Below, piece after piece: positions 3,448 to 39,389 of a stretch of DNA of 64,000 nucleotides. Position numbers and translations under genes: made by a program. The notes beneath the pieces were generated by a model, which was not told the DNA's origin, did not search any database, and saw only the letters and a program-made list of their open reading frames with translations. Source of the stretch: Candidatus Caldarchaeales archaeon (lineage in GTDB: Archaea; Thermoproteota; Nitrososphaeria_A; Caldarchaeales; Wolframiiraptoraceae). Numbering within the stretch: the stretch's first letter is position 1; each line of letters opens with the position of its first letter. Location of the stretch: positions 64,001-128,000 of the forward strand of contig JBCNVN010000001.1 of NCBI GenBank assembly GCA_039630055.1, read 5' to 3'.

Positions 3448-3717
3448 TTAAAACAAGTCTAGTTCTGTCTGACCCATACCAGTCTGCGTCCAAATTACTC
3501 TCCTTTTATACTTATAAGACTTAACTATCCCTTCTGCCTCCATATTCTTTAGATGTCTCCTAACTGAAGAATTACTTCTCTTGACTTCTTCTGCTATATT
3601 CTTTAGAGTTGAGGGTTTAGAAGATATAATCTCGAGGATTCTAGACCTGGTATCTATCCCCCTCTTAACATTCTTGATCCTAGATAAGTATGCTCTAGGG
3701 TTGACCTTAGACATCAA
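3448..3717 (-). CDS. Small winged-helix (ArsR-like) DNA-binding protein
   Basis: TRSRILEII...TLKNIAEEVKRSNSSVRRHLKNMEAEGIV wHTH pattern; directly downstream of polC; C-terminus QTELDLF. Confidence 0.8.
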   Translation of the reverse strand: MMSKVNPRAYLSRIKNVKRGIDTRSRILEIISSKPSTLKNIAEEVKRSNSSVRRHLKNMEAEGIVKSYKYKRRVIWTQTGMGQTELDLF

Positions 3718-3764
3718 TTATAGGATCTTTACATCTTCTAGATATCTATTTACCCTTTATGGAG

Positions 3765-6700
3765 CTAGCTGGAGAAACTTTCTAGAGAGGCTTGCCTGCC
3801 AACTTTCCCCCCGACCATTCTCTGTCTTGACAACATTCTTTCAATATTCTCTATAGACATATAACCGTACTCTTTAAGATATGGTGTTTTTACATATCTT
3901 GATAAAAGTTTTCTTGCGAGCTCGACATATTTCTCCACCGCCCCTCTGAACACGGTCTGCATAAGCTCTCCACCGCATCTAGAGCACTTGGTGGTGATCG
4001 GTAGCCTCCTATACTTTAAACCACATCTCTTACATCTAAATTCTTGTGTAAAGAATGCTCTAGCATTTCCAACTATATCCGGTAAAATGTGGGTCTGCAT
4101 TATCTTCTCAACTACTAGGGTAACGTCGATTCCTGCTAACTTATTAGCAATATCCAGCTGTCCAACTATCTTATCTAGCATTGAAGAGTGTTTTTTGTAT
4201 GCTGACTCTTTAACAGGCGTGGTTAGAGAAGTTTGTGGATGTGTGAACCTTGTAGACGTGTAAGATCCAGCTTCTCCAAGGAAATTCTTTACAGTTAATA
4301 TAATTCCAGATACTTTAGATATGTGTTCTCTATCCTCTGCCCTCCTATAAAATTCTAAAGGATATCTATCTGCAACATCGAGATTATGTGCTTGTTCATC
4401 TACCTCTTCTGGATAAACTATAGAGGTTATCAAGAGAGGTGTATCCATTCTTCCACCAATTCTATCTGGGAGATATAGTTTAGAGAAGTTTATTAGAGGG
4501 TCTAATAGAAGCATTATGCTATCCTCATCTCCATCACAGTCTCTTCTCTTTGCTGCATGAAGGACCGGGTGAGCGAAACATACAAGAGCATCCACTATGC
4601 CGATCACTCTCGATACGGAGGCTGCATATGTGTGAGGTGATAAGACTACTACGAGTTCTCCTATAACATCTTCAGGACTATTGAAATTATAGTATGGATT
4701 CATTCCTGCAAGCTTCACTAACTCATCATCAATCACTTTTGAGACCTTGAATAAGTGTTCAGCAGCTTCTCTCGGGATGATTATGTCTTGTATTCTCAGC
4801 TCAAGATACTGGTCTGGAGATGTCAATAGATTACCATAGATATCATGTGTATATCCAAGCTCTCTAAGCTTCTCTACCTTCGTCCCTATCTGTCTTGGAG
4901 TAAAGTGGGTTAGAGGAGCATTCGTTACATCAAATCTCATCGTGCCATCCTTGTATATGAAAAGTCCATGTTTTGCTCTCATTATACCTTTAGAGAGCTC
5001 TTCAGGGGTTCTGGTTAGACTAGTCAATCTTTTAACACCTTTAATCTTTGATGGGGGTGCTTCACCAATCCTTCTCAAAGCCTCATAAACTTCTTCCGCT
5101 ACATTCACCACGAACTTCTCAAAATAGTGAACGGTACCTCCACACTTCACGCAAGTGCTCTCCCCATCATACTTCTTCTCTGATCCACATGATTCACATA
5201 ATCCTATAATATCTGTTATAATTCCACATTTAGGACATCTATGCTTCCACGTCTTCATTCTGCAATTCGGACAAATTCTCCTAACCAATTCAACGGCCAC
5301 TCTCTCGTTATTGTTTGAAGCTTGTACGATGTCTCTTGAAGGCCCTCCACTCAACCCTATCGGGAAGAGGATGTTTACGGGAGGGGTCGTCTCTCTCTGG
5401 GCAGCTTTTTCAGGCCTACCCATTCTAGCGCTTATAAAAGTTCCAGTCTTATCCTTAATCTTCAACCCTGATAATCTGGATAAATGCTCAAGTATGGGGC
5501 CATCAACTAACCGTTCTTCTCTAAATGGTTGAAGCGTTGCGATGAGAGCTTTGAACCATGATTTGGGGATAACTATCCTATCAGACTCAACTCTATGCTC
5601 TACAAGTATCCTAATTAGAAGCTCTCTAATATCATCAGATCTAGGTAGATGTATTTCTTCATCTTTATGAATGAGCGGCCTTATACCATTTCTAATCCAT
5701 CTTCTAATCATCTCTGACTCCTCTACCGTTATGTTTGTCCAGAAAGCAGTGTATCGAGGGTGGAGAGGAGCACCGGTCCTAAAACTTATAATGATAGCCT
5801 CATCTACGGAAGGAATCTCATGGAAGGGGTCAGTGATTAGAGAATCGATCCTCTCTAAAAGTTTTCTATCAACTTTATCGAGAGAATTGACCAAGGCCAT
5901 CCTAAGCTCTTCCGCCCACCACTCTTCACAAAATCCCGGTGGATAAAGTATAACATTGTTCTCTATCAGGTCTCCTACCGATATCAGTATATCTCCAAGA
6001 AACAGTATTTTAGCAATCTTCTCTTTTATCCTCATATACTTTGAATGATCATCTAGTCTTAGGAGCTCACCATCCTCCGTCAATACATGTGGTGGCTCGA
6101 TAGTATCTACTACGGCCACGACCCCTCCTTTCCCTGGATAGTCCAACTTTAGCTGAGTTCCAGAGACAATATACCAATTCAAGACTTCCAAGGTTAATGG
6201 GTGGAGACCTATAGATGCTAAGCCTGTTGATGGAGCCCTTCCATATCTAATCCTCAAACCACCGAACCTATCTGGGAGAGAGAGTATGGGTCTTCCACCA
6301 ACAACTTCATCAAAGTATCTCTCATCTTCATTCTTCACTTGCTCCATCATCTTGATTACTTCTTTTATCCAATCCCAGCCATCTAATCCTACCTTTTCAA
6401 CGAGTTTTAGAACTTTCTTGGCTCTACCCGCTATACCATCGTTTACAACTCTGAGAGCTCCTCCTCTAAGATAGTTTGTCTCAATCCTCGGCAGGTTCCG
6501 GAATGAAGATACAAGTATCCTATCTGTCGGGATACCTGTTACTTCTACTGGAAGATTCTTCAAAACATACTCAATTATGTTATCTGGAACATTGTATTGG
6601 AATCTCGAGACCATCTTCTTATAGACTCTCAGTTCCTCTATGAACCTTACTATCTCCTCATAAGTGGGAATATACTTATCTAATCCCATTAGCCTTCTAA

Positions 6701-30222: not shown

Positions 30223-30393
30223 TTGGGCATAAGAGAATTTATTAAGGATTCGCTAACACTCTTTAAACTAGCTAGAAAGCCTGCGAGGAATGAATTTCTC
30301 CTCGCCTTAAGGATAACCCTACTCGGAGTAGGCATCATTGGGGTCATAGCATTTATTATAAGGTTTGTAGCTCTTGCTATCCAAGGAGTTTAG
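30223..30393 (+). CDS. secE: Preprotein translocase subunit SecE/Sec61-gamma
   Basis: Not in the ORF track. TTG start; MGIREFIKDSLTLFKLARKPARNEFLLALRITLLGVGIIGVIAFIIRFVALAIQGV; LARKP..EF hinge plus TM helix; upstream of spt5. Confidence 0.9.
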   Translation: MGIREFIKDSLTLFKLARKPARNEFLLALRITLLGVGIIGVIAFIIRFVALAIQGV

Positions 30394-30403
30394 GGGGATC
30401 GAG

Positions 30404-30907
30404 ATGTCTTCGGGTACTCCAAGATATTTTGCCGTAAAAGTAACGGTAGGGCAAGAAAGAAACGTGGCAAAGATCGTTGAAAGCAAAGTTATCAGAGAGG
30501 TTGTGGAGGATGGTAAAACCGTCAAGGTTGAGAGGATAGTTGAAGGCATATACTCTATTATTGCATTGCCAAACATTAAAGGCTACATATTCATAGAAGC
30601 TGATAGTAGAGAGAAGGTCTCACTAATAACTCAAGGGATAAGACATGTAAAATCTAGACCCGCTATATTGGTAAAGAAAGAAGAGATAATGCAACATCTT
30701 ATAGAGAAGCCGATGATCGAGATGATCTCTATTGGAGATATGGTAGAGATCGTTTCAGGGCCTCTAAGAGGAATATACGGCAAAGTCTTAAGGATCGATA
30801 AACCAAAGAATGAGGTAACGATAGAGCCTACAGATGCTGCCTTCCCCCTACCTATCTCTATCCCTGCAGACCAAGTAAGGATAGCTCAACAATCGGAAAG
30901 GAGGTGA
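30404..30907 (+). CDS. spt5: Transcription elongation factor Spt5 (NusG family)
   Basis: AVKVTVGQERNVA, KGYIFIEA, KOW GDMVEIVSGPLRG; ATG at 30404 after the secE stop. Confidence 0.93.
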   Translation: MSSGTPRYFAVKVTVGQERNVAKIVESKVIREVVEDGKTVKVERIVEGIYSIIALPNIKGYIFIEADSREKVSLITQGIRHVKSRPAILVKKEEIMQHLIEKPMIEMISIGDMVEIVSGPLRGIYGKVLRIDKPKNEVTIEPTDAAFPLPISIPADQVRIAQQSERR

Positions 30908-30911
30908 CCTA

Positions 30912-31391
30912 ATGCCTCAGAAGACTGTTAGATTCATAGTTCAAGGAGGTGAAGCAACAGCAGGCCCACCGATCGGGCCTTCACTCGGTCCACTAGGTGT
31001 AAATGTTCTCCAGATCGTTGAAGAAATAAACCGGGTTACTTCAGAGTTTAAAGGGATGAGGGTTCCAGTAGAGGTAACAGTGGATACAGGTACAAAAGAT
31101 TTCAAAGTTACTGTGGGTATACCTACAACTACAGCCTTGATAGTGAAAGATGCAAAGATAGAGAAAGGTGCTAAGATGCCTGGAAGAGAGACTGTAGGTC
31201 AAGTCAGTCTCGAGCAGGTTATAAAAATAGCTAGGATGAAGATGGATGATATGCGTGCTAAGAGCTTGAAGACTGCTGTAAAGCAAGTTCTAGGAACATG
31301 TTTAAGTATGGGGATATTGGTAGATGGTAAAAGTCCGAAAGAAGTCTTGAGAGAGATCGACTCCGGTCTTCACGATGAAAGATTGAAGTAG
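30912..31391 (+). CDS. rpl11: 50S ribosomal protein uL11
   Basis: GGEATAGPPIGPSLGPLG, GTCLSMG. Confidence 0.96.
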   Translation: MPQKTVRFIVQGGEATAGPPIGPSLGPLGVNVLQIVEEINRVTSEFKGMRVPVEVTVDTGTKDFKVTVGIPTTTALIVKDAKIEKGAKMPGRETVGQVSLEQVIKIARMKMDDMRAKSLKTAVKQVLGTCLSMGILVDGKSPKEVLREIDSGLHDERLK

Positions 31392-31493
31392 CTTATGCGA
31401 AATTGAACCATGAGGGATAGATCCGGAATATAGGTTGGAATACTTCAAGGTATGTTTAAATTAATCCTCTAGCCCTCAACCTTTAGAGAGGTT

Positions 31494-32150
31494 ATGCTTA
31501 AGAGTTTAGAAGCAGACTTGGCAACAGCTATCGAAGAAGCTAAGAAGAATGGAAAGCCTAGAAAATTTGAGCAGAGTATAGAGTTGATTATAAATATAAA
31601 AGGGTTAGATTTGAAGAAGGCTGAGAATAGGTTCGTGGAAGATATAGAGCTTCCGAACAGTCCAATAGGTGGAAGAAAGATCTGTGTAATAGCTGGAGGT
31701 GCGCTAGCCTCTGAATCTAGGAAGATAGGAGAGGTTAGTAGAGTTATAGAGAGAGATGAGCTGGAATCGCTTATCGGTAACAAGAGGATAGCGAAGAAGG
31801 TCGCCTCACAGTATGATTACTTTCTAGTTGATCCACCTCTGATGGGTTTAACGGCTAAGGCTCTTGGAGCTGCTCTAGGAGGAAGAGGTAAGAAGCCTGT
31901 CCCTATACCTCCAGGATCAAGTATAAGCGAACTCGTTAAGAAGTATAGTCGGATGGTTACGGTAAGTGTTAGGAAGAATCCTCAAGCTATGTGCGCGATA
32001 GGTACTGAAAGTATGGAGACTAGAGCCCTCGTAGAAAATGCTCTAGCGGTAATCTCTAAAGTCTCAGATAGATTAGAGAAGCATTTCAAGAATATAAAAT
32101 CAATATATGTTAAGAAGAGTATGGGTAAGCCTATCAAGATAACACTTTAA
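31494..32150 (+). CDS. rpl1: 50S ribosomal protein uL1
   Basis: RKFEQSIELIINIKGLDL, LGGRGKKP, IGTE, IYVKKSMG. Confidence 0.94.
   Translation: MLKSLEADLATAIEEAKKNGKPRKFEQSIELIINIKGLDLKKAENRFVEDIELPNSPIGGRKICVIAGGALASESRKIGEVSRVIERDELESLIGNKRIAKKVASQYDYFLVDPPLMGLTAKALGAALGGRGKKPVPIPPGSSISELVKKYSRMVTVSVRKNPQAMCAIGTESMETRALVENALAVISKVSDRLEKHFKNIKSIYVKKSMGKPIKITL
32141..32150 (+). repeat. Left copy of direct repeat AACACTTTAA (3' end of rpl1, including its stop codon)
   Basis: Identical 10-mer at 35161-35170; both copies are preceded by CCTATC (32130-32135 and 35151-35156). Confidence 0.75.
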
Positions 32151-32190
32151 AGATAAAAATCATCTCTCAGAGTATAGTTAGAGAAAGTTT

Positions 32191-32208
32191 ATCAACTTAC
32201 ATGTTGAT
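32191..32208. promoter_or_regulatory. Inverted repeat ATCAAC-N6-GTTGAT overlapping the putative promoter of the HTH_10 regulator
   Basis: Perfect 6-bp arms next to GAAAGTTTATC (BRE/TATA-like), ending 13 bp before the TTG start; function inferred. Confidence 0.4.
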
Positions 32209-32221
32209 GTAGATCTAGAAC

Positions 32222-32839
32222 TTGAAGCAGAAGTTGGGATTAAAGATCTCAAAGATCTTGATACGTAATAGTGATTGTAGAGTTGTAAGGTGGTTGGAGA
32301 GTAAAGGGGTTGAAGCAGAATTTAAGATTGTTAAGATAAGTGAGAATACTTCTACACATCTATTAAGATTTCCCAAACCGATAGAGTTTGACAAACAGAT
32401 GGATATCCATGGTTCATACATGGTCTTGCCAGGCAACTATCTCTGGATAAATACAGAAAGCTGTACAGCATGTAGAACCTTCTCAAAACTACCTGTAATA
32501 ATGAGATCTATATCATATGCTAAATCCTCAGGCATTATCGTAAGATTAATAGTTCCAGGGAGATTATTTCATAGACAGCTTATAGAGTGCTTAGAGAATT
32601 CTGGTCTAGAAGTAGAATCAATCTCGATCAGAGAATATGAAGATTATGAGTTGACTGAAAGACAGATGGAGGTTCTCATAACGGCCTTAAAGTTAGGATA
32701 TCTAGGAAGTAGGAGAAGCGCAAAGCTGAAAGACATAGCATCCTTTATAGGCTCAGATCCCTCTACAGTCTCACGGATTATTAGAGACGGCATCAAAAAG
32801 ATAATAAAAAGAACTTTAGATGAAGAACATATTTATTAG
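32222..32839 (+). CDS. Bacterio-opsin-activator-type HTH_10 transcriptional regulator with Cys-containing sensor region (NarO/DmsR-like)
   Basis: C-terminal LTERQMEVLITALKLGYL...AKLKDIASFIGSDPSTVSRIIR; N-terminal SDCRV, ESCTACRT and IECLE cysteines. Confidence 0.85.
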   Translation: MKQKLGLKISKILIRNSDCRVVRWLESKGVEAEFKIVKISENTSTHLLRFPKPIEFDKQMDIHGSYMVLPGNYLWINTESCTACRTFSKLPVIMRSISYAKSSGIIVRLIVPGRLFHRQLIECLENSGLEVESISIREYEDYELTERQMEVLITALKLGYLGSRRSAKLKDIASFIGSDPSTVSRIIRDGIKKIIKRTLDEEHIY

Positions 32840-32843
32840 TATA

Positions 32844-32863
32844 TCATACAACATTTTGTATGA
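32844..32863. promoter_or_regulatory. Operator-like perfect inverted repeat TCATACAA-CATT-TTGTATGA
   Basis: 8-bp perfect arms with a 4-bp spacer, just upstream of an AT-rich BRE/TATA-like stretch and about 33 bp before the subunit II start. Confidence 0.7.
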
Positions 32864-32895
32864 AAATATTATCTTTAATCATGAATAAACATTAA

Positions 32896-33474
32896 TTGAT
32901 GGCACCCCAGATAATTATAGAAGTAGTCTATCTTGTAATAATATCGATAGTCATAGGGTTCATTATAGTCTTCTACATATTGACTCAGAGAGGTAAGAGT
33001 AGAGGTCAGAATTCAAGTGGTGAAGAGCATGGGATAAAGAAGGGTATGGAGAAAGGAGAGAAACGATGGCTGGTCTTCTTATTCATAATAGCTTTGATCG
33101 GAAATATGGTGATGCTGTCTCCACTTCTCCCATCTACGAGATACACTTTATGGTTAGAAGAAAAACCAAAATTAACGATAAAAATAGAAGTGATAAACTA
33201 TGAATTTATACTTCCTGAAAAGCCTATAACTATCCCAGCAGGTACTCCAGTAGAGTTTATAGTAGTATCTCAAGACCTAGTATATGGTTTCGGGGTATTC
33301 AGAAAGGATGGGCTCATGGTATTCCAGATGCAGGTGGTTCCTAAACCATATGAAAATCGAATAGTATGGGTATTCGATGAGCCTGGGTACTATGATATAA
33401 GGTCTACAGAATATAGTGGTCCTAAGCATCCCTACATGTATGTTCCCGATGCAATAAAAGTAGTGGGAGGATGA
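32896..33474 (+). CDS. Heme-copper oxidoreductase subunit II (cupredoxin fold) lacking the CuA site
   Basis: Two TM helices plus a cupredoxin domain; DLVYGF (Tyr at the CuA His position) and RSTEYSGPKHPYM (both CuA Cys replaced by Ser). Confidence 0.9.
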   Translation: MMAPQIIIEVVYLVIISIVIGFIIVFYILTQRGKSRGQNSSGEEHGIKKGMEKGEKRWLVFLFIIALIGNMVMLSPLLPSTRYTLWLEEKPKLTIKIEVINYEFILPEKPITIPAGTPVEFIVVSQDLVYGFGVFRKDGLMVFQMQVVPKPYENRIVWVFDEPGYYDIRSTEYSGPKHPYMYVPDAIKVVGG

Positions 33475-33480
33475 GAATGT

Positions 33481-35049
33481 ATGAATGAAGAAGAGAGGAA
33501 GGTTCTCTCGATAAGGTTTGTAGTGATCTCATTGATCTTCTTAGCATTAGCTGGGATTGAAGGAATACTGATGAGGTTTAGAATAGTAAATACTCTTGTA
33601 GAACTCTTTGATGAAAAGCATTTCTACTCTATGATGACAGCCCACCCATTTATCGGAGTATATGGATGGGCTTATATGGCTGTTATGGGTGCATTCTACT
33701 TTCTCGTACCCTATATTCTCAAGAAAGATATCTACAGTAAGAAGGCTGCATACTTGAGTTTCTGGCTGATGATTATAGGTTTGGCAACTGTCTGGACAAC
33801 TACATTTTTAACTCATTATGCACCCCTCTACACTCTCTACTGGCCTATACCGGTGGCATACGATATAATTGGATGGAACATATACTCTATACTCTCTTTT
33901 GGTTTAGGTGTCGCATTGATCTTAGGAGGTGTACTCACATTCTTTGGGAACATGTTTGCTACAATATTCCTATCTCAGCGGCAGACAGATGGAGGATCTG
34001 CCAGCCCATGGTACATAATCAAAGAACTAATTATAACAGCATTCAATCTAGATAAGGTTAGGGCAAATATACTAAGACTACCGCAATATACTTCGAAGGC
34101 CTTCAGTTATCCAGTCTTTGTTGTAGCCGTTTTTAGAGGATGTGTAGATACGACATTAAACGCGTTTGTTATAGGAGGTGTAGGAGTACTCTTGATAGTG
34201 TTTGCTATAGGAAACGTGATCCCGAATCTTTCTATATCCCATACTATACTAGATCCATTAATATACAAGAATATCTTCTGGTGGGGGCTAGACCTTATAG
34301 CTGATGGGAACGTCCTCATCTTCACCGCTGGAACATGGTATCTTCTCGTACCACTACTACTCAATAGGACTTTATACGGAGAGAGTGTTGTGAGAACTGT
34401 TATCCTTGCAGACCTTGTAATCTCTCTCTTCGTCTGGAATCACCATATGCTGGCAGATACTCCTCAGCCCTTAGCTCTACAGATACAAGGTCAGATATTC
34501 ACTTGGGGAGAGCTGCTGACGATGGGGTTGACAATGTTCGCTGTTCTAGCAACGATATGGTATGCGAGACCTGTAAAATATTCTATGCCCTTGAAGTTTA
34601 TTCTCGTATCTATTGTAGGATATGCTGTAGGTGGTTTAGCTGGAATAATACAAGCGAACTATGCATCAAACAGATTCTTCCATAATACTCAGTGGGTTAT
34701 AGGGATCCATGGACATATACAACTGCTTGTAGGGTTATCTTCAACTCTGTTTGCAGCGGTTTATGCTCTCTTCCCATTACTTACAGGTAAGTCGCTTAGT
34801 GAAAGATTGGGAAATGTTCATTTGATACTCTGGACTGTTGGTGGACTGGTGATGGGATTAAGCATGGGGTTGGCTGGAACACAGGGGATGTTGAGGAGAA
34901 CTCTCTACCCGATGGGATTAGGACCTTTCGAACCATATATGAACATAGCGATCATAGGAGCTTTGATGATGGCAACGGCCTTCATAATCTTCCTTGTAAA
35001 TATCATTAGAACGGTAAAGCTTGGCAACCTACTAAAGATACTCTTTTAA
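33481..35049 (+). CDS. Heme-copper oxidoreductase subunit I, B-family derived, gNOR-type (putative nitric oxide reductase)
   Basis: Heme ligands H55 and H410/H412 (HNTQWVIGIHGH), H321/H322 (WNHH), E344, MLRR. Helix VI reads FWWGLDLIAD where ba3-type oxidases read FWWxGHPxVY. HCO membership is clear; the NOR activity is inferred. Confidence 0.85.
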   Translation: MNEEERKVLSIRFVVISLIFLALAGIEGILMRFRIVNTLVELFDEKHFYSMMTAHPFIGVYGWAYMAVMGAFYFLVPYILKKDIYSKKAAYLSFWLMIIGLATVWTTTFLTHYAPLYTLYWPIPVAYDIIGWNIYSILSFGLGVALILGGVLTFFGNMFATIFLSQRQTDGGSASPWYIIKELIITAFNLDKVRANILRLPQYTSKAFSYPVFVVAVFRGCVDTTLNAFVIGGVGVLLIVFAIGNVIPNLSISHTILDPLIYKNIFWWGLDLIADGNVLIFTAGTWYLLVPLLLNRTLYGESVVRTVILADLVISLFVWNHHMLADTPQPLALQIQGQIFTWGELLTMGLTMFAVLATIWYARPVKYSMPLKFILVSIVGYAVGGLAGIIQANYASNRFFHNTQWVIGIHGHIQLLVGLSSTLFAAVYALFPLLTGKSLSERLGNVHLILWTVGGLVMGLSMGLAGTQGMLRRTLYPMGLGPFEPYMNIAIIGALMMATAFIIFLVNIIRTVKLGNLLKILF

Positions 35050-35160
35050 GATATCTAACCCTCAAACTTCATATTTTTCAGTTATATTTAGACTAGTTAC
35101 TATAAAGTAACTCTGAAAGTTAAGAGATGAATATTTAAGATCTTTAGAGTCCTATCCTAC

Positions 35161-35170
35161 AACACTTTAA
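35161..35170 (+). repeat. Right copy of direct repeat AACACTTTAA
   Basis: Matches 32141-32150; lies in the 188-bp gap before rpl10. Confidence 0.75.
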
Positions 35171-35237
35171 GTTTTTTAACTAGGTGAAAGTATAGACAGA
35201 CTGAGTTAGTAGAGTTTAAAGGAGTGTTGGTTTAGAC

Positions 35238-36107
35238 TTGAATGGACAGACCGTGATCTCGAGGGTGCAGAGATGGAAGATTGAAGAAGTCGAGGAATTG
35301 GCAAGTTTAATCGGAAAGCATCGAGTAATCGCTGTCTTTAGTTTATCCGGCTTGAGAACAAACCTAATACATGAGATTCGGAAGAAGCTTAGAGGCTTCT
35401 GCACTATAAGAGTTGCAAAAAAGACCCTCTTTATCAAGGCCGTAGAGCGGGCGGGTAGAAAAGATCTGGCTAAGCTTGTAGAAGATATTAAAGAAAGCGT
35501 TGGGTTCATATTCTCAGATCTTAACATATTCAAGCTTAAAATGCTGCTGGATAAGAATAAGGTACTCATGCATGCTAAAGCAGGAGAGAGATCAGATATA
35601 GATGTAATAGTGCCTGAGATGAATACTGGACTTCCTCCGGGACCTATCTTGAGCGATTTCGGAAAGTTAAAGATACCTACGAGGATCGAGGGAGGTCAGA
35701 TATGGATCGCTAAAGATACTCTAGTAGCTAAGAAAGGTGATGAAATATCAGCTCCTCTGGCCTCACTTCTATCAAGGCTTGATATAAAAGCGGTGATGAA
35801 AGGGATAACGATCGATAAAGGCTATGAAGATGGAGTGATATTATCTGGAAAAGACCTTGAATTAGATCTAGAGATGTTCAAGAATAACATTATAGAGGCC
35901 AGTAGCACAGCCATGAAGTTAGCGTTAGAGATAGGATATGTAACAAGAGAGACTATACAGCCTCTAATAATCAAAGCATATAGAGAGGCTAGGTCTCTCG
36001 CAATTGAATCAGGGTTCCCAGATAAAGAAGTGATAGGAGAGATGATTATCAAGGCTGAAGTAATAGCTAGAAGGCTGGAAGAGTTGATAGAGGCTAAGAG
36101 GACCTAA
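35238..36107 (+). CDS. rpl10: 50S ribosomal protein uL10 (P0)
   Basis: WKIEEVEEL, VAKKTLF, AKAGE...NTGLPPGPILSDF, IPTRIEGG. Confidence 0.95.
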   Translation: MNGQTVISRVQRWKIEEVEELASLIGKHRVIAVFSLSGLRTNLIHEIRKKLRGFCTIRVAKKTLFIKAVERAGRKDLAKLVEDIKESVGFIFSDLNIFKLKMLLDKNKVLMHAKAGERSDIDVIVPEMNTGLPPGPILSDFGKLKIPTRIEGGQIWIAKDTLVAKKGDEISAPLASLLSRLDIKAVMKGITIDKGYEDGVILSGKDLELDLEMFKNNIIEASSTAMKLALEIGYVTRETIQPLIIKAYREARSLAIESGFPDKEVIGEMIIKAEVIARRLEELIEAKRT

Positions 36108-36118
36108 CCCTCTATTGA

Positions 36119-38884
36119 TCACTTGGCCAATATCTGGATGATTAGATCGTTGACAGTTTTTCTTAAATCTTCTTCATCGACATCTCTTCCCAAGTTTCCC
36201 TGACCAAGCCTAGATTGTCCACCACCCTTTCCACCAAGCTTTGATGATATCGCATCGGCTAGTCGTCCAGCATGAATTCCTAGATCCTGAGCCTCTTCAC
36301 TAGATACTATAAGCAATTTTGGTTTCCCCACATCGAATGCTATCACGACGCATTTCGGACCCTTTTTCTCCATCAATATATCCGAGATCATGAATGCATA
36401 ATCCCTATCACCCTCTACTTCCCTGGCTACAAATACTTCGATCCCCCCGATTATAGACCGTCTATCGAATAATTCTTGAGCTCTATATTTTGCAACCATT
36501 CTTTCAAGCGAGTTGATCTTCCTCCTCAGTTCTTTAACCTGATCCAATTCTTCCTTTAACTTCTCTAAGATATCTACTGGAGATGATTTAAGAAGTATAG
36601 ATGCCTCATTTATTATTCTATCGTTTTCTTGGAGGTATGGTAAAGCTGATGGACCTGCAGCGAAGATGAGTCTTTCCACACCATCTTGTATTCTCTCCGT
36701 CTTCAATATCTTTATCAATCCTACGTCTTCAGTGTTTTCACAGTGCATTCCACCACATGCTTCTACATCCCAACCTAATATCCCTACAACTCTAATCGTA
36801 GCAGAGGGTACCTCGCCTCCTTGATATAGGGTGAATCCATAAATCCTCTCCGCCTCATTTCTATCCATCCACTTGATGACGACCGGTATCCTACTCATAA
36901 CGATCCTATTCGCTTCCCTCTCTATCTTCTCAATATCTTCTCTGGTCAACCTCTTATGATGGTATATGTCTAATCTAGCTTTATCTGGTTCCTTCTCTGC
37001 ACCGGCTTGCCAAGCATGCTTACCTAAGACCCTTCTCGCAGATCCCAGAATTATATGTGTGGCAGTATGGTGTCTCATCAATGTAAGCCTCCTCTCTCTG
37101 TCTAACTCTGCATCTACTATGGTTCCTACCTCTGGTGTAGGACCCTCGATCTTATGGAGAATTACACCACCACTCAATAGACTGGTCTCGACAACTCTTG
37201 CTTGATTATTTTGACCCCATCTTATGAAACCTATATCGGTGGCTTGACCTCCTCCAGTAGGATAAAACAATGTCTGATCGAGAATTACATAATTATCTAG
37301 AACGCCTATGACCTTTGCCCTGAACTTGAACTCAAAAGGTTGCTCATAGTACAGCTTCCTCGTTGGAGGATAGTTTTTCACTCTTTCCTCTAGAATTTTG
37401 AGCTCATCATGGATTGGAGGTTCAATGGATCTGAGATGTCGTGATGCTACAAGCTCATAGAAGTTCTCGGGGACCGATATTTTTACATCTTCTCTTTCAG
37501 CGATCTGTCTTACAAAATCGGGGGTGAGCCCTCTCTCATCATACATTCTAACCAAGAAATCTACTGGAACCTCTCCATGACTATCCTTCAACCGCTTGAT
37601 CTCTCTCTCAACATAAGTAGCTCCACGGAAGATTGTCTCTTTAAACTTCTTTATCTCAGACTCTATTATCTCGAGAGCTTCATCCCTCATCTCTATGAGA
37701 TGTGGAAAATCCTTTCCCCAGAAGTTTAGCTGTAGATCTACCAGCTCGAGCAGTTTATCAGATGAAGATATGGAGTCTATCAGTCTGTATGCCTTCCTAA
37801 TCAGTAACCTTGCTAGATAGCCTACCTTTACATTTGATGGTACAACCCCCTCACTTATTATAAATGCTATAGACTTTGTGTAATCAAGTAGTGCATAGAC
37901 TTTCTCCAGTGCTGCTATCTCCTCCTCTATAAACCTGAGGGGGATCTCAGATTTTTCTGATATTAGTCTCCTCACTTCAGAGATCGTTTGTCCAGACTTT
38001 GGGATGACGAGAGCCGTATATGGTGAGTATCTCTCGAGAAGCTTTCTATCAGGCTTAGGGAATGGTAGGATCTTCTCAATCCTCGGATAGAGCTCACCAT
38101 ATACTGCATCGAAGCAGCTGGGTGTTCCTTGGCTGAACCATGCAAACCTCTCGATGCCATAACCTGTATCTACAGTTCTTATCGGTAGCTCTATCAACTC
38201 GCTATCAAGTGTCTTATACTGCATAAAGACGAGTGTTGCTAACTCTAGTCCATAAGAGATGGTTTCAAAGCATGGTCCAGCATTTCCGCCACCACTCCAA
38301 ACAGACTCTTTGTAGACTATCTGATCTTCAGGTATGCCGAATTCCTCCATAACATATTCATGATAATATCTTACTGTATCCTCTTTCCAGTAGATCTCCT
38401 TGTCTGGATAGTTGAATGCATGGGCTCCACCCATCTCGAATATCGTTAGATGTCTTCCGAAAGTTAATCCAACCTTGTCTATGTCTACCAGTCTTATACA
38501 TGGCTGACTAATTACTAGGGGGTTGGCTGGGGGTGGGGCTATTCCAGAAGTCACGAAGGGTTGGAAGTCTACGATGCTAGCATCGGTTAAGAACATGTCG
38601 GTCCTCCATCTAGCAACGACTGGATATGGCTTTATCACTGTATGACCTCTCTTCTCGAAGAATCTGAGAAAGGTCTCTCTAGAACCTTTAACGTCAACCT
38701 TCTTCTTTGCTAGACTTCTACCGATAAATTTGTATTCTTCACAAGGTGACTCTCCACAGACTTCTCTATCTAGATCGACTGTCCAAAAATATTCTCCACA
38801 ATACTTACATCTTCTTCTGACGTAACCTCTCTCTTTAAAGAATTCTAGACTATAAACTTCTTCGCTGAACCTCATACCATCCAT
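36119..38884 (-). CDS. alaS: Alanine--tRNA ligase (archaeal type)
   Basis: N-terminal CKYC, YPVVARWR, SQPCIR, FEMGGAHAF, DTGYGIER, editing HHTATH and ACGGMH, GGKGGG. Confidence 0.97.
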   Translation of the reverse strand: MDGMRFSEEVYSLEFFKERGYVRRRCKYCGEYFWTVDLDREVCGESPCEEYKFIGRSLAKKKVDVKGSRETFLRFFEKRGHTVIKPYPVVARWRTDMFLTDASIVDFQPFVTSGIAPPPANPLVISQPCIRLVDIDKVGLTFGRHLTIFEMGGAHAFNYPDKEIYWKEDTVRYYHEYVMEEFGIPEDQIVYKESVWSGGGNAGPCFETISYGLELATLVFMQYKTLDSELIELPIRTVDTGYGIERFAWFSQGTPSCFDAVYGELYPRIEKILPFPKPDRKLLERYSPYTALVIPKSGQTISEVRRLISEKSEIPLRFIEEEIAALEKVYALLDYTKSIAFIISEGVVPSNVKVGYLARLLIRKAYRLIDSISSSDKLLELVDLQLNFWGKDFPHLIEMRDEALEIIESEIKKFKETIFRGATYVEREIKRLKDSHGEVPVDFLVRMYDERGLTPDFVRQIAEREDVKISVPENFYELVASRHLRSIEPPIHDELKILEERVKNYPPTRKLYYEQPFEFKFRAKVIGVLDNYVILDQTLFYPTGGGQATDIGFIRWGQNNQARVVETSLLSGGVILHKIEGPTPEVGTIVDAELDRERRLTLMRHHTATHIILGSARRVLGKHAWQAGAEKEPDKARLDIYHHKRLTREDIEKIEREANRIVMSRIPVVIKWMDRNEAERIYGFTLYQGGEVPSATIRVVGILGWDVEACGGMHCENTEDVGLIKILKTERIQDGVERLIFAAGPSALPYLQENDRIINEASILLKSSPVDILEKLKEELDQVKELRRKINSLERMVAKYRAQELFDRRSIIGGIEVFVAREVEGDRDYAFMISDILMEKKGPKCVVIAFDVGKPKLLIVSSEEAQDLGIHAGRLADAISSKLGGKGGGQSRLGQGNLGRDVDEEDLRKTVNDLIIQILAK

Positions 38885-38918
38885 CTAGTGACAACTACTT
38901 ATAGATAAAAATAATCCT

Positions 38919-39233
38919 CTAACCAAAGAGAGCGCTTAATCCTGCTAAAGCCTCTTCTTCTCTCTCTTCTTTCTTCTCTTCTTTCTTTTCAGCTGGTTTT
39001 ACTTCTGGAGCAGGAGCCTGGGCCGCAGAGCTCGGACCTGCCGATATTATAGGAGTAGCTGAAGCCGACTTCAAGACTTCTTCAATATTGATCTCTGAAA
39101 CTGCTGCTACTAGAGATTTAATCCTAACTTCATCTGGAGTGATCCCGGCGGCTGATAGGACCCTCTTCACATTCTCTTCATTAATCGGCTTACCAGCCTT
39201 GTGGAGAAGTAAGACTGTATATATGTACTCCAT
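38919..39233 (-). CDS. rpl12: 50S ribosomal stalk protein P1/L12
   Basis: [20 protein letters not shown]...Ala/Pro hinge, acidic tail, LAGLSALFG; start placed at ATG 39233. Confidence 0.95.
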
Positions 39234-39389
39234 CTCTAGTCTAACATAGTCTAGGTTAGCCTGCATTTAAAGATTATCCAGACCACCATTTTATACATCT
39301 CTATTTAATCGAGAATAGTTAGCCCTCAAATTTTTGTGAATATTGAATAGTAATATCGTATATAAACTGGACCTAGTCTATAGATTGGC

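Follow-up and report, generated by a model that had tools for sequence, protein, structure and literature searches.

The 64,000-nt stretch of Candidatus Caldarchaeales DNA analysed here (the window; GenBank assembly GCA_039630055.1, contig JBCNVN010000001.1, positions 64,001–128,000) carries a compact cassette that is, by its sequence, a further member of the already proposed gNOR family of heme-copper oxidoreductases (HCOs). The cassette comprises a transcription regulator, a candidate operator, a subunit II and, at 33,481–35,049 on the forward strand, a gNOR-type subunit I of 522 residues. As described by Murali et al. (2024 PNAS, PMC11214002), gNOR enzymes have aspartate in place of an active-site histidine, lack the tyrosine cofactor and are paired with a subunit II that is a cupredoxin without CuA residues and for which quinol oxidation is considered possible; nitric oxide (NO) reduction is proposed in the text of that paper, with no assay given there. 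The assignment of the window protein to this family is supported by every sequence-level criterion that could be tested, and the anatomy, conservation, clade membership and genomic associations of the cassette are all directly observed. We consider it fairly probable that the cassette is a self-contained unit under its own regulator whose enzyme, with a probable iron site, uses quinol to reduce two NO to N2O.

Active site of subunit I

Subunit I matches PF00115 (COX1) at 2.3e-61 over residues 10–496 and scores far under the cut-off of every NCBIfam oxidase equivalog. Its helix VI stretch, DPLIYKNIFWWGLDLIAD, holds D271 and D275, the first and last residues encoded by the D271-L-I-A-D275 codons at 34,291–34,305 on the forward strand (D271 at 34,291–34,293 and D275 at 34,303–34,305). 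In a MAFFT L-INS-i alignment of the window protein, 8 family members and 39 other full-length heme-copper enzymes from an exhaustive search, D271 is aligned, without any gap before it, with the helix VI His that serves as a metal ligand in 38 of the 39 outgroups, the remaining one having Arg, and D275 falls on a position occupied by Tyr in 29, Asn in 8 and Leu or Gln in 2. At the other ligand positions, the outgroups have His opposite H55, H322 and H412 (39/39 each), H410 (38/39) and H321 (36/39). E344, on helix VIII, is a family-specific carboxylate, since the outgroups are hydrophobic at this position (I, V, L, A or M in 36 of 39) and only 1 has Glu; we take it to lie roughly at the position of cNOR Glu280. 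Relative to the same outgroups, the family carries two single-residue insertions, which follow D275 and precede H410, respectively.

A sequence-only reading made before this analysis had claimed that both the helix VI His and the cross-linked Tyr are replaced by Asp, and that H55, H321/H322, H410/H412 and E344 are present. The family-wide comparison bears this out. All 68 homologues, ranging from 48 to 100% identity and drawn from both Archaea and Bacteria, have the motif WWGLDxxADG, and the full set of invariant residues comprises H55, W267, W268, G269, L270, D271, A274, D275, G276, H321, H322, E344, H410 and H412. The invariance of D271 and D275 across these homologues points to purifying selection on the changed site, not to chance or decay. 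The same reading had aligned helix VI without gaps to a ba3-type sequence. Against the 39 other enzymes the alignment indeed has no gap ahead of D271; the ba3 string that it quoted did not turn up in any result, and a 49-residue helix VI fragment searched against PDB sequences returned chance antibody matches only and no ba3 residue alignment. A HMMER pairwise alignment to Bacillus subtilis aa3-600 introduces a one-residue gap, which pairs L270 with the His and A274 with the Tyr; in this alignment as in the MAFFT one, the helix VI His and Tyr are absent.

An AF2 model of subunit I built from the 68 homologues (pLDDT 84.3, pTM 0.87) superposes on solved subunits I with Z of 37–41. A-, B- and C-type subunits I lie within a few Z units of one another in these comparisons (Foldseek, VIA-align), so the fold does not place the family. 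Judging from the alignment, H55 and H412 would ligate the low-spin heme and H410 the high-spin heme, which would face a non-heme metal held by a 2-His-1-carboxylate set of H321, H322 and D271. D275 and E344 would supply further carboxylates at this metal site, and the metal is most likely Fe rather than Cu. In helix I, E27 is invariant in the family and R32 nearly so. H47, which lies 8 residues before H55 with a spacing like that of the bo3 quinol-site His, was considered as a quinol ligand and dropped, as it is not conserved across the family.

The enzyme has likenesses on both the NO reductase and the oxidase side. Like cNOR and qNOR, it lacks the Tyr cofactor, would have a carboxylate-containing non-heme metal site and is proposed to convert two NO to N2O; with qNOR it would also share quinol as the donor. 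It differs from both in having Asp for one His, and its partner is a CuA-less cupredoxin in place of NorC or a fused domain. The three-His-plus-Glu FeB site of cNOR, qNOR and nNOR is thus not present, the helix VI His being Asp, and no cNOR or qNOR chain occurs among the best 60 of the 64 PDB profile matches. With ba3 (B-family) and the A-family quinol oxidases bo3 and aa3-600, subunit I has in common the 12-helix fold, the helix VI context D-P-L...F-W-W, the HH pair of helix VII and the HxH of helix X. The bo3 subunit II is likewise CuA-less (PMC11214002), and the cupredoxin of the window subunit II is closest to that of ba3. These oxidases differ from the window enzyme in their His–Tyr cofactor, replaced here by Asp/Asp, in the hydrophobic residue at the E344 position and in having neither of the two one-residue insertions. 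nNOR, which is proposed to be B-family-derived and has a reference from an Aigarchaeota cell in Dataset S1 of PMC11214002, occurs in the same archaeal order as the window enzyme; as described in that paper, it has a cNOR-like three-His-plus-Glu site and a His/Met low-spin heme, whereas the window protein has D271 and a predicted His/His pair.

Family membership and distribution

The sequence-only reading had assigned the protein to gNOR, a group it took to be described mainly from bacteria, and had rated the system as a candidate for something undescribed. The assignment is supported, and the other two statements are not. PMC11214002 reports gNOR in Bacteria and Archaea, in 156 GTDB genomes, and its Dataset S8 lists gNOR in Caldarchaeales f__NZ13-MGT g__JGI-0000106-J15, where several genomes are entered with one or two gNOR each and with a zero under each of nap, nar, nirK, nirS and nos. 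This GTDB genus is Geocrenenecus (Buessecker et al. 2022, PMC9246946), and the closest relatives of the window protein, at 87–80% identity, belong to Candidatus Geocrenenecus and to Aigarchaeota or Nitrososphaerota metagenome-assembled genomes. As the genus is already in Dataset S8, the cassette is a known kind of system, in print as a table entry. Compared with gNOR as presented in the text and datasets of PMC11214002, we see nothing different in the enzyme itself; the features that go beyond that text and those datasets are the BAT/HTH_10 regulator with its Cys3-His set, the unique palindrome, the two genomic sites and the neighbour counts described below.

Several lines of evidence support the gNOR assignment. 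First, the window enzyme has Asp for the active-site His, no Tyr at the cross-link position, for which Dataset S5 of PMC11214002 gives '-' in gNOR, and a CuA-less subunit II.

Second, the family is sharply bounded in the exhaustive search: no full-length member scores below 395 bits, and the best full-length protein outside it reaches 114 bits (28% identity). The family is reportedly also credited to Hemp and Gennis in 2008. A motif-guided scan of species-representative genomes gave at least 588 pattern matches, with at least 548 encoding a relative; the locus counts given below refer to the best 80 of these at least 548 relatives, 26 of them archaeal and 54 bacterial by their record titles.

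Third, we built a tree of 54 rows, consisting of the window protein, 14 further proteins with both aspartates and 39 outgroups cut to 640 residues, with fragments left out. The 15 rows with both aspartates form one clade apart from the 39 outgroups (SH-aLRT 100, stem 0.94). This clade contains the proteins of WOR-1 RIFCSPLOWO2_02_FULL_46_20 (L078), the organism of tree reference OGC04573.1 in PMC11214002, and of HRbin02 (L006), counted with one gNOR in Dataset S8 of that paper; both proteins carry WWGLDLIAD. The references of PMC11214002 were matched in this clade test by organism, not by accession number.

Two proteins near to the family but outside it have unusual helix VI sites of their own. 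In one, P0161, the His ligand is replaced by Arg, and Gln takes the place both of the Tyr and of the leading His of the HH pair. The other, P0159, has WWGL and a post-motif insertion like gNOR but keeps the His and has Asn for Tyr, and so looks, from its residues, like an intermediate form.

Of the 76 genomes of the order Caldarchaeales, counting that of the window, 17 encode a close relative (E of 1e-60 or lower); in the window's genus, so do 6 of the 7 other genomes. The nearest relatives from outside Caldarchaeales in the tree are bacterial (Terriglobales and Methylomirabilota, 64–66% identity), which may point to inter-domain transfer.

Subunit II, regulator, palindrome and genomic sites

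Subunit II is encoded at 32,899–33,474 on the forward strand, as 191 residues with a membrane N-terminus and a CuA-less cupredoxin domain; its start is the ATG at 32,899, conserved across 6 loci, and not the TTG at 32,896. It lies directly 5′ of subunit I in 75 of the 80 loci, the other 5 having less than 50 nt of upstream DNA. The protein gives weak CoxB/COX2 matches, and among PDB sequences it comes closest to Thermus ba3 subunit II and CuA-domain constructs (E ~2e-5), with a small margin of 27 bits for ba3 against 25 bits for Escherichia coli CyoA; from these matches a cupredoxin fold is predicted. When aligned with 1ehk_B, the first CuA His is Y129 and both Cys are Ser (S169 and S173), with the second His (H177) and the Met (M180) kept. 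When the window subunit II was aligned with 76 open reading frames (ORFs) from 73 loci, this Tyr/Ser/Ser state was present in 73 of the 77 rows, and the motif RSTEYSGP is at least 90% conserved. Because the cupredoxin is without CuA, electrons would most likely come from membrane quinol.

The regulator gene, at 32,222–32,839 on the forward strand, encodes 205 residues with an N-terminal BAT-like domain and a C-terminal HTH_10 domain (PF04967 at 6.7e-11, residues 144–196), and all 6 orthologous loci share its TTG start. Its structural neighbours in the atlas are small 'HTH bat-type' proteins with PF15915 BAT; a fold search with a model of the regulator gave no convincing match, the best being Thermoplasma Ta1207 at TM 0.42 and the others at 0.29 or below. 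C19, H46, W75, C81 and C84 are invariant in the window regulator and nine gNOR-linked relatives at 19–68% identity. This Cys3-His set, defined here only for gNOR-linked regulators, could hold a metal or an Fe–S cluster.

A perfect 8+4+8 inverted repeat, TCATACAA-CATT-TTGTATGA (32,844–32,863), lies downstream of the regulator stop codon and ahead of an A/T-rich, TATA-like stretch that precedes the subunit II ATG by about 30 nt; we regard this repeat as a candidate operator. Its arms are 100% complementary and its core is ATRCAA-N4-TTGYAT. All 6 orthologous loci retain the repeat, with A/T exchanged for G/C symmetrically. Pairing holds in 91.7% of cells, compared with 23–60% in slid controls, and 3 of 500 shuffles reach this value, all on six sequences only. 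The palindrome is the only exact site both in the 64-kb window and in the 1.54-Mb genome. A one-mismatch match at 34,717–34,732, inside subunit I, is within chance expectation. A second inverted repeat, ATCAAC-N6-GTTGAT at 32,191–32,208, lies upstream of the regulator start codon; its left arm (TATCAAC) occurs only in L003 and L004 and is absent in other relatives, and as a conserved element it was set aside as probably due to chance.

The module of regulator, operator, subunit II and subunit I that the sequence-only reading had drawn from this one locus reappears elsewhere. With a hidden Markov model (HMM) of the regulator, we found full-length relatives adjoining gNOR in 10 further archaeal loci and in three different arrangements; in the Geocrenenecus-like loci and L013 the relative precedes gNOR on the same strand, and in L011, L012, L027 and L028 it immediately follows gNOR. 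A further four loci match more weakly, and only over the C-terminal portion of the regulator; in the bacterial gNOR loci among the 80, the HMM found no regulator relative. In one locus, that of Candidatus Geocrenenecus huangii (L004, 3,679–4,344), an in-frame stop splits the regulator into ORFs at 3,679–4,032 and 4,036–4,344, with subunits II and I intact; this could be a pseudogene or an assembly error.

The position of the palindrome, just upstream of the TATA-like stretch, would be the usual place for the site of an archaeal activator. Most likely the regulator binds to this single palindrome, which lies just 5′ of the subunit II promoter, and activates the operon. A comparable arrangement is described in haloarchaea, where denitrification genes are under a Bat-type, oxygen-responsive regulator, NarO, and where the nir, nor and nos promoters have a shared semi-palindrome 66–79 nt upstream of the start codon. 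NarO, DmsR and similar Bat-type proteins are described, as is the window regulator here, as small BAT plus HTH_10 proteins with no PAS or GAF domain and a semi-palindrome with a 4-nt centre, and their role is the control of genes for anaerobic respiration or denitrification. They differ in belonging to another phylum and in their half-site (CGAA, against ATRCAA here), and they are likened to the window regulator by description, not by sequence.

The cassette is flanked on the left by the gene for ribosomal protein L1 (31,494–32,150) and on the right by that for ribosomal protein L10 (P0; 35,238–36,107), both on the forward strand and both named from their translations. A run of five T at 35,074–35,078 on the forward strand, 25 nt past the subunit I stop, is a possible archaeal terminator. 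The gene order nusG-L11-L1-[regulator-II-I]-L10 is shared by L003, L004 and L005 among the 80 related loci and is kept up to the contig limit in L074. In the representative genome of Geocrenenecus dongiae (L002, 87% identity), the same three genes stand amid QueT, DUF350, amidohydrolase and peptidase genes. The cassette therefore occupies two different genomic sites within the genus, and from this we conclude that the three genes travel as a unit. No RNA sequencing run containing the locus was found among the runs listed; the locus was found in three DNA runs of one hot-spring study, one of which may be its source.

Around the cassette, the conserved archaeal string nusG-L11-L1-L10-L12 is broken twice within window positions 30,374–39,266, with the gNOR cassette standing between L1 and L10. 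After L10, on the opposite strand, follow alaS (36,119–38,884) and an L12-like gene (38,919–39,266), in a layout that is the same in L003 and L004.

Substrate, neighbouring genes and rival explanations

The metal, the electron donor, the substrate, the regulator's signal and the choice between activation and repression are what we infer from these observations, and the content of the host genome bears on several of them. The window genome comprises 1.54 Mb in 80 contigs and is 92% complete. Subunit I is its only HCO; it also has a heme O synthase (255 bits, above cut-off) and cytochrome bd-like genes, which imply a quinol pool. The sequence-only reading had noted that the window is free of nir, nar and nos genes, and this now extends to the whole 92%-complete genome, in which we found no match to nirK, nirS, NosZ (TIGR04246) or the molybdopterin-oxidoreductase (Nar/Nap-type) families, a control for the last matching in 11 of 14 genomes. 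With no match to a nitrite reductase, nitrous-oxide reductase or molybdopterin oxidoreductase, the enzyme, which most likely reduces two NO to N2O, would serve NO detoxification or the use of external NO and not denitrification.

Of the indirect evidence gathered here for a role of the family in handling NO, the best comes from the genes that stand beside gNOR in other genomes. In E. coli, the regulon of the NO-responsive regulator NsrR includes YtfE-type hemerythrin proteins, Hcp and YgbA. We clustered all ORFs within 5 kb of gNOR in the 80 loci and scanned the recurrent clusters. Hemerythrin-HHE genes are present near gNOR in 20 of the 80 loci (in a 21st, L043, which runs into the end of its contig, only DUF438 is visible), and the other recurrent neighbours are Crp/Fnr (11 loci), UbiA prenyltransferase (8), DUF166 (6), Hcp (4) and YgbA_NO (4). 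At least one of hemerythrin, Hcp and YgbA lies near gNOR in 25 of the 80 loci, and these 25 span Chloroflexota, WOR-1, Omnitrophica, Firestonebacteria, Methanomethylicia, Bathyarchaeia and Thermoproteota.

A number of points weigh against our interpretation of the cassette as a quinol-driven NO reductase. Many of the positive loci are from related Chloroflexota, so the neighbour counts are not independent, and 55 of the 80 loci are without any NO-stress neighbour. The window genome itself gives no Hcp or hemerythrin match, and at 92% completeness its absences are not proof. That D271, D275 and E344 face the metal site is read from the alignment. The B-family origin is not clearly reproduced, the family profile scoring 108 bits against the A-family and 65 bits against ba3, and in the tree the family's closest neighbours are unusual enzymes of the H...N type, whose branches are not starred. 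Finally, in the titles and abstracts of the listed papers from 2023 onward that name 'gNOR', we found no purified or assayed gNOR, so NO reduction stands as a proposal for the family as a whole.

The last of these points also favours the best-placed rival explanation, in which the protein is a heme/non-heme-metal enzyme acting on another substrate (N2O, peroxide, sulfur species or NO dismutation) and 'gNOR' is a misnomer. 2-His-1-carboxylate sites support many chemistries, and the window genome is without a match to any enzyme that would be a source or sink of N-oxides. The predominantly sulfidic settings from which PMC11214002 reports gNORs would fit such a substrate as well. By contrast, the neighbours that recur across phyla (hemerythrin-HHE, Hcp, YgbA_NO and Crp/Fnr) point to NO specifically, and PMC11214002 cites a synthetic mimic of the gNOR site that reduces NO. 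We regard another substrate as unlikely; if it were the true one, the whole gNOR family, with relatives in at least 548 species genomes, would need a new name.

Considerably less probable is an O2-reducing terminal oxidase, for example one for high-affinity scavenging, in which a carboxylate-rich site replaces the His–Tyr cofactor. This is what public annotation implies, as the relatives bear oxidase names such as 'cbb3-type cytochrome c oxidase subunit I', and papers on Aigarchaeota and Nitrososphaeria take HCO genes as a sign of aerobic life. That subunit I is the only HCO of a genome with a heme O synthase, and that Bat-type regulators such as NarO are described as responding to oxygen, would agree with it. 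Four-electron O2 reduction, however, requires the helix VI His and Tyr, both of which are replaced in 68 of 68 members, and no Tyr takes the C-family position before the HH pair (LVISLFVWNHH), where, in our own reckoning of the equivalent position, S315 is invariant. The cytochrome bd-like genes could handle O2 in this genome, and the gNOR neighbours in other genomes are NO-stress genes, not oxidase assembly genes.

A decayed, non-functional remnant of an oxidase, as the missing canonical CuB and CuA ligands and the in-frame stop in the L004 regulator might suggest, is scarcely credible, given that both subunit frames are intact with all heme ligands kept, that the substituted residues are invariant over 48–100% identity in two domains, that RSTEYSGP is conserved in subunit II and that the gene is kept in nearly every other genome of the genus.

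If, as we think, the cassette encodes an NO reductase, a stronger claim can be framed, namely that it is a portable unit by which strictly anaerobic, nir-less thermophilic archaea sense and remove NO. The Cys3-His BAT/HTH_10 protein would then be a new archaeal sensor of NO (or of O2 and NO) with a regulon of one operator, and the enzyme a quinol-driven, 2-His-1-carboxylate iron site unlike every characterised NO reductase. We offer this as a speculative extension that, taken whole, is doubtful.

Recognition of the gene as gNOR, one that is routinely mislabelled in public annotation as an oxygen-respiring oxidase, removes the HCO-based evidence for oxygen respiration in Geocrenenecus. It suggests that these organisms tolerate or consume NO from neighbours or from hot-spring chemistry, and they may be an unnoticed source of N2O. 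The matter concerns a large family, given the number of relatives among species-representative genomes, and the version found here, which is compact, thermophilic, built of two subunits and accompanied by its own regulator and operator, would lend itself to the first biochemical and structural study of a heme-copper active site with an Asp ligand.

Two further observations concern genes of the host and the neighbours. In the window genome, matches resembling cytochrome bd subunit I lie at the start of a contig (C11, positions 65–1,536; L082 and L083) in two or three pieces and in two frames or ORFs; they could represent two neighbouring copies, or one gene truncated at the edge of the contig. 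Among the neighbours of gNOR, seven ORFs in L037, L044, L046, L051, L059 and L072, from several Chloroflexota and one Thermoproteota record, encode large DUF438-hemerythrin-PAS_10 proteins, which are candidate gas or redox sensors.

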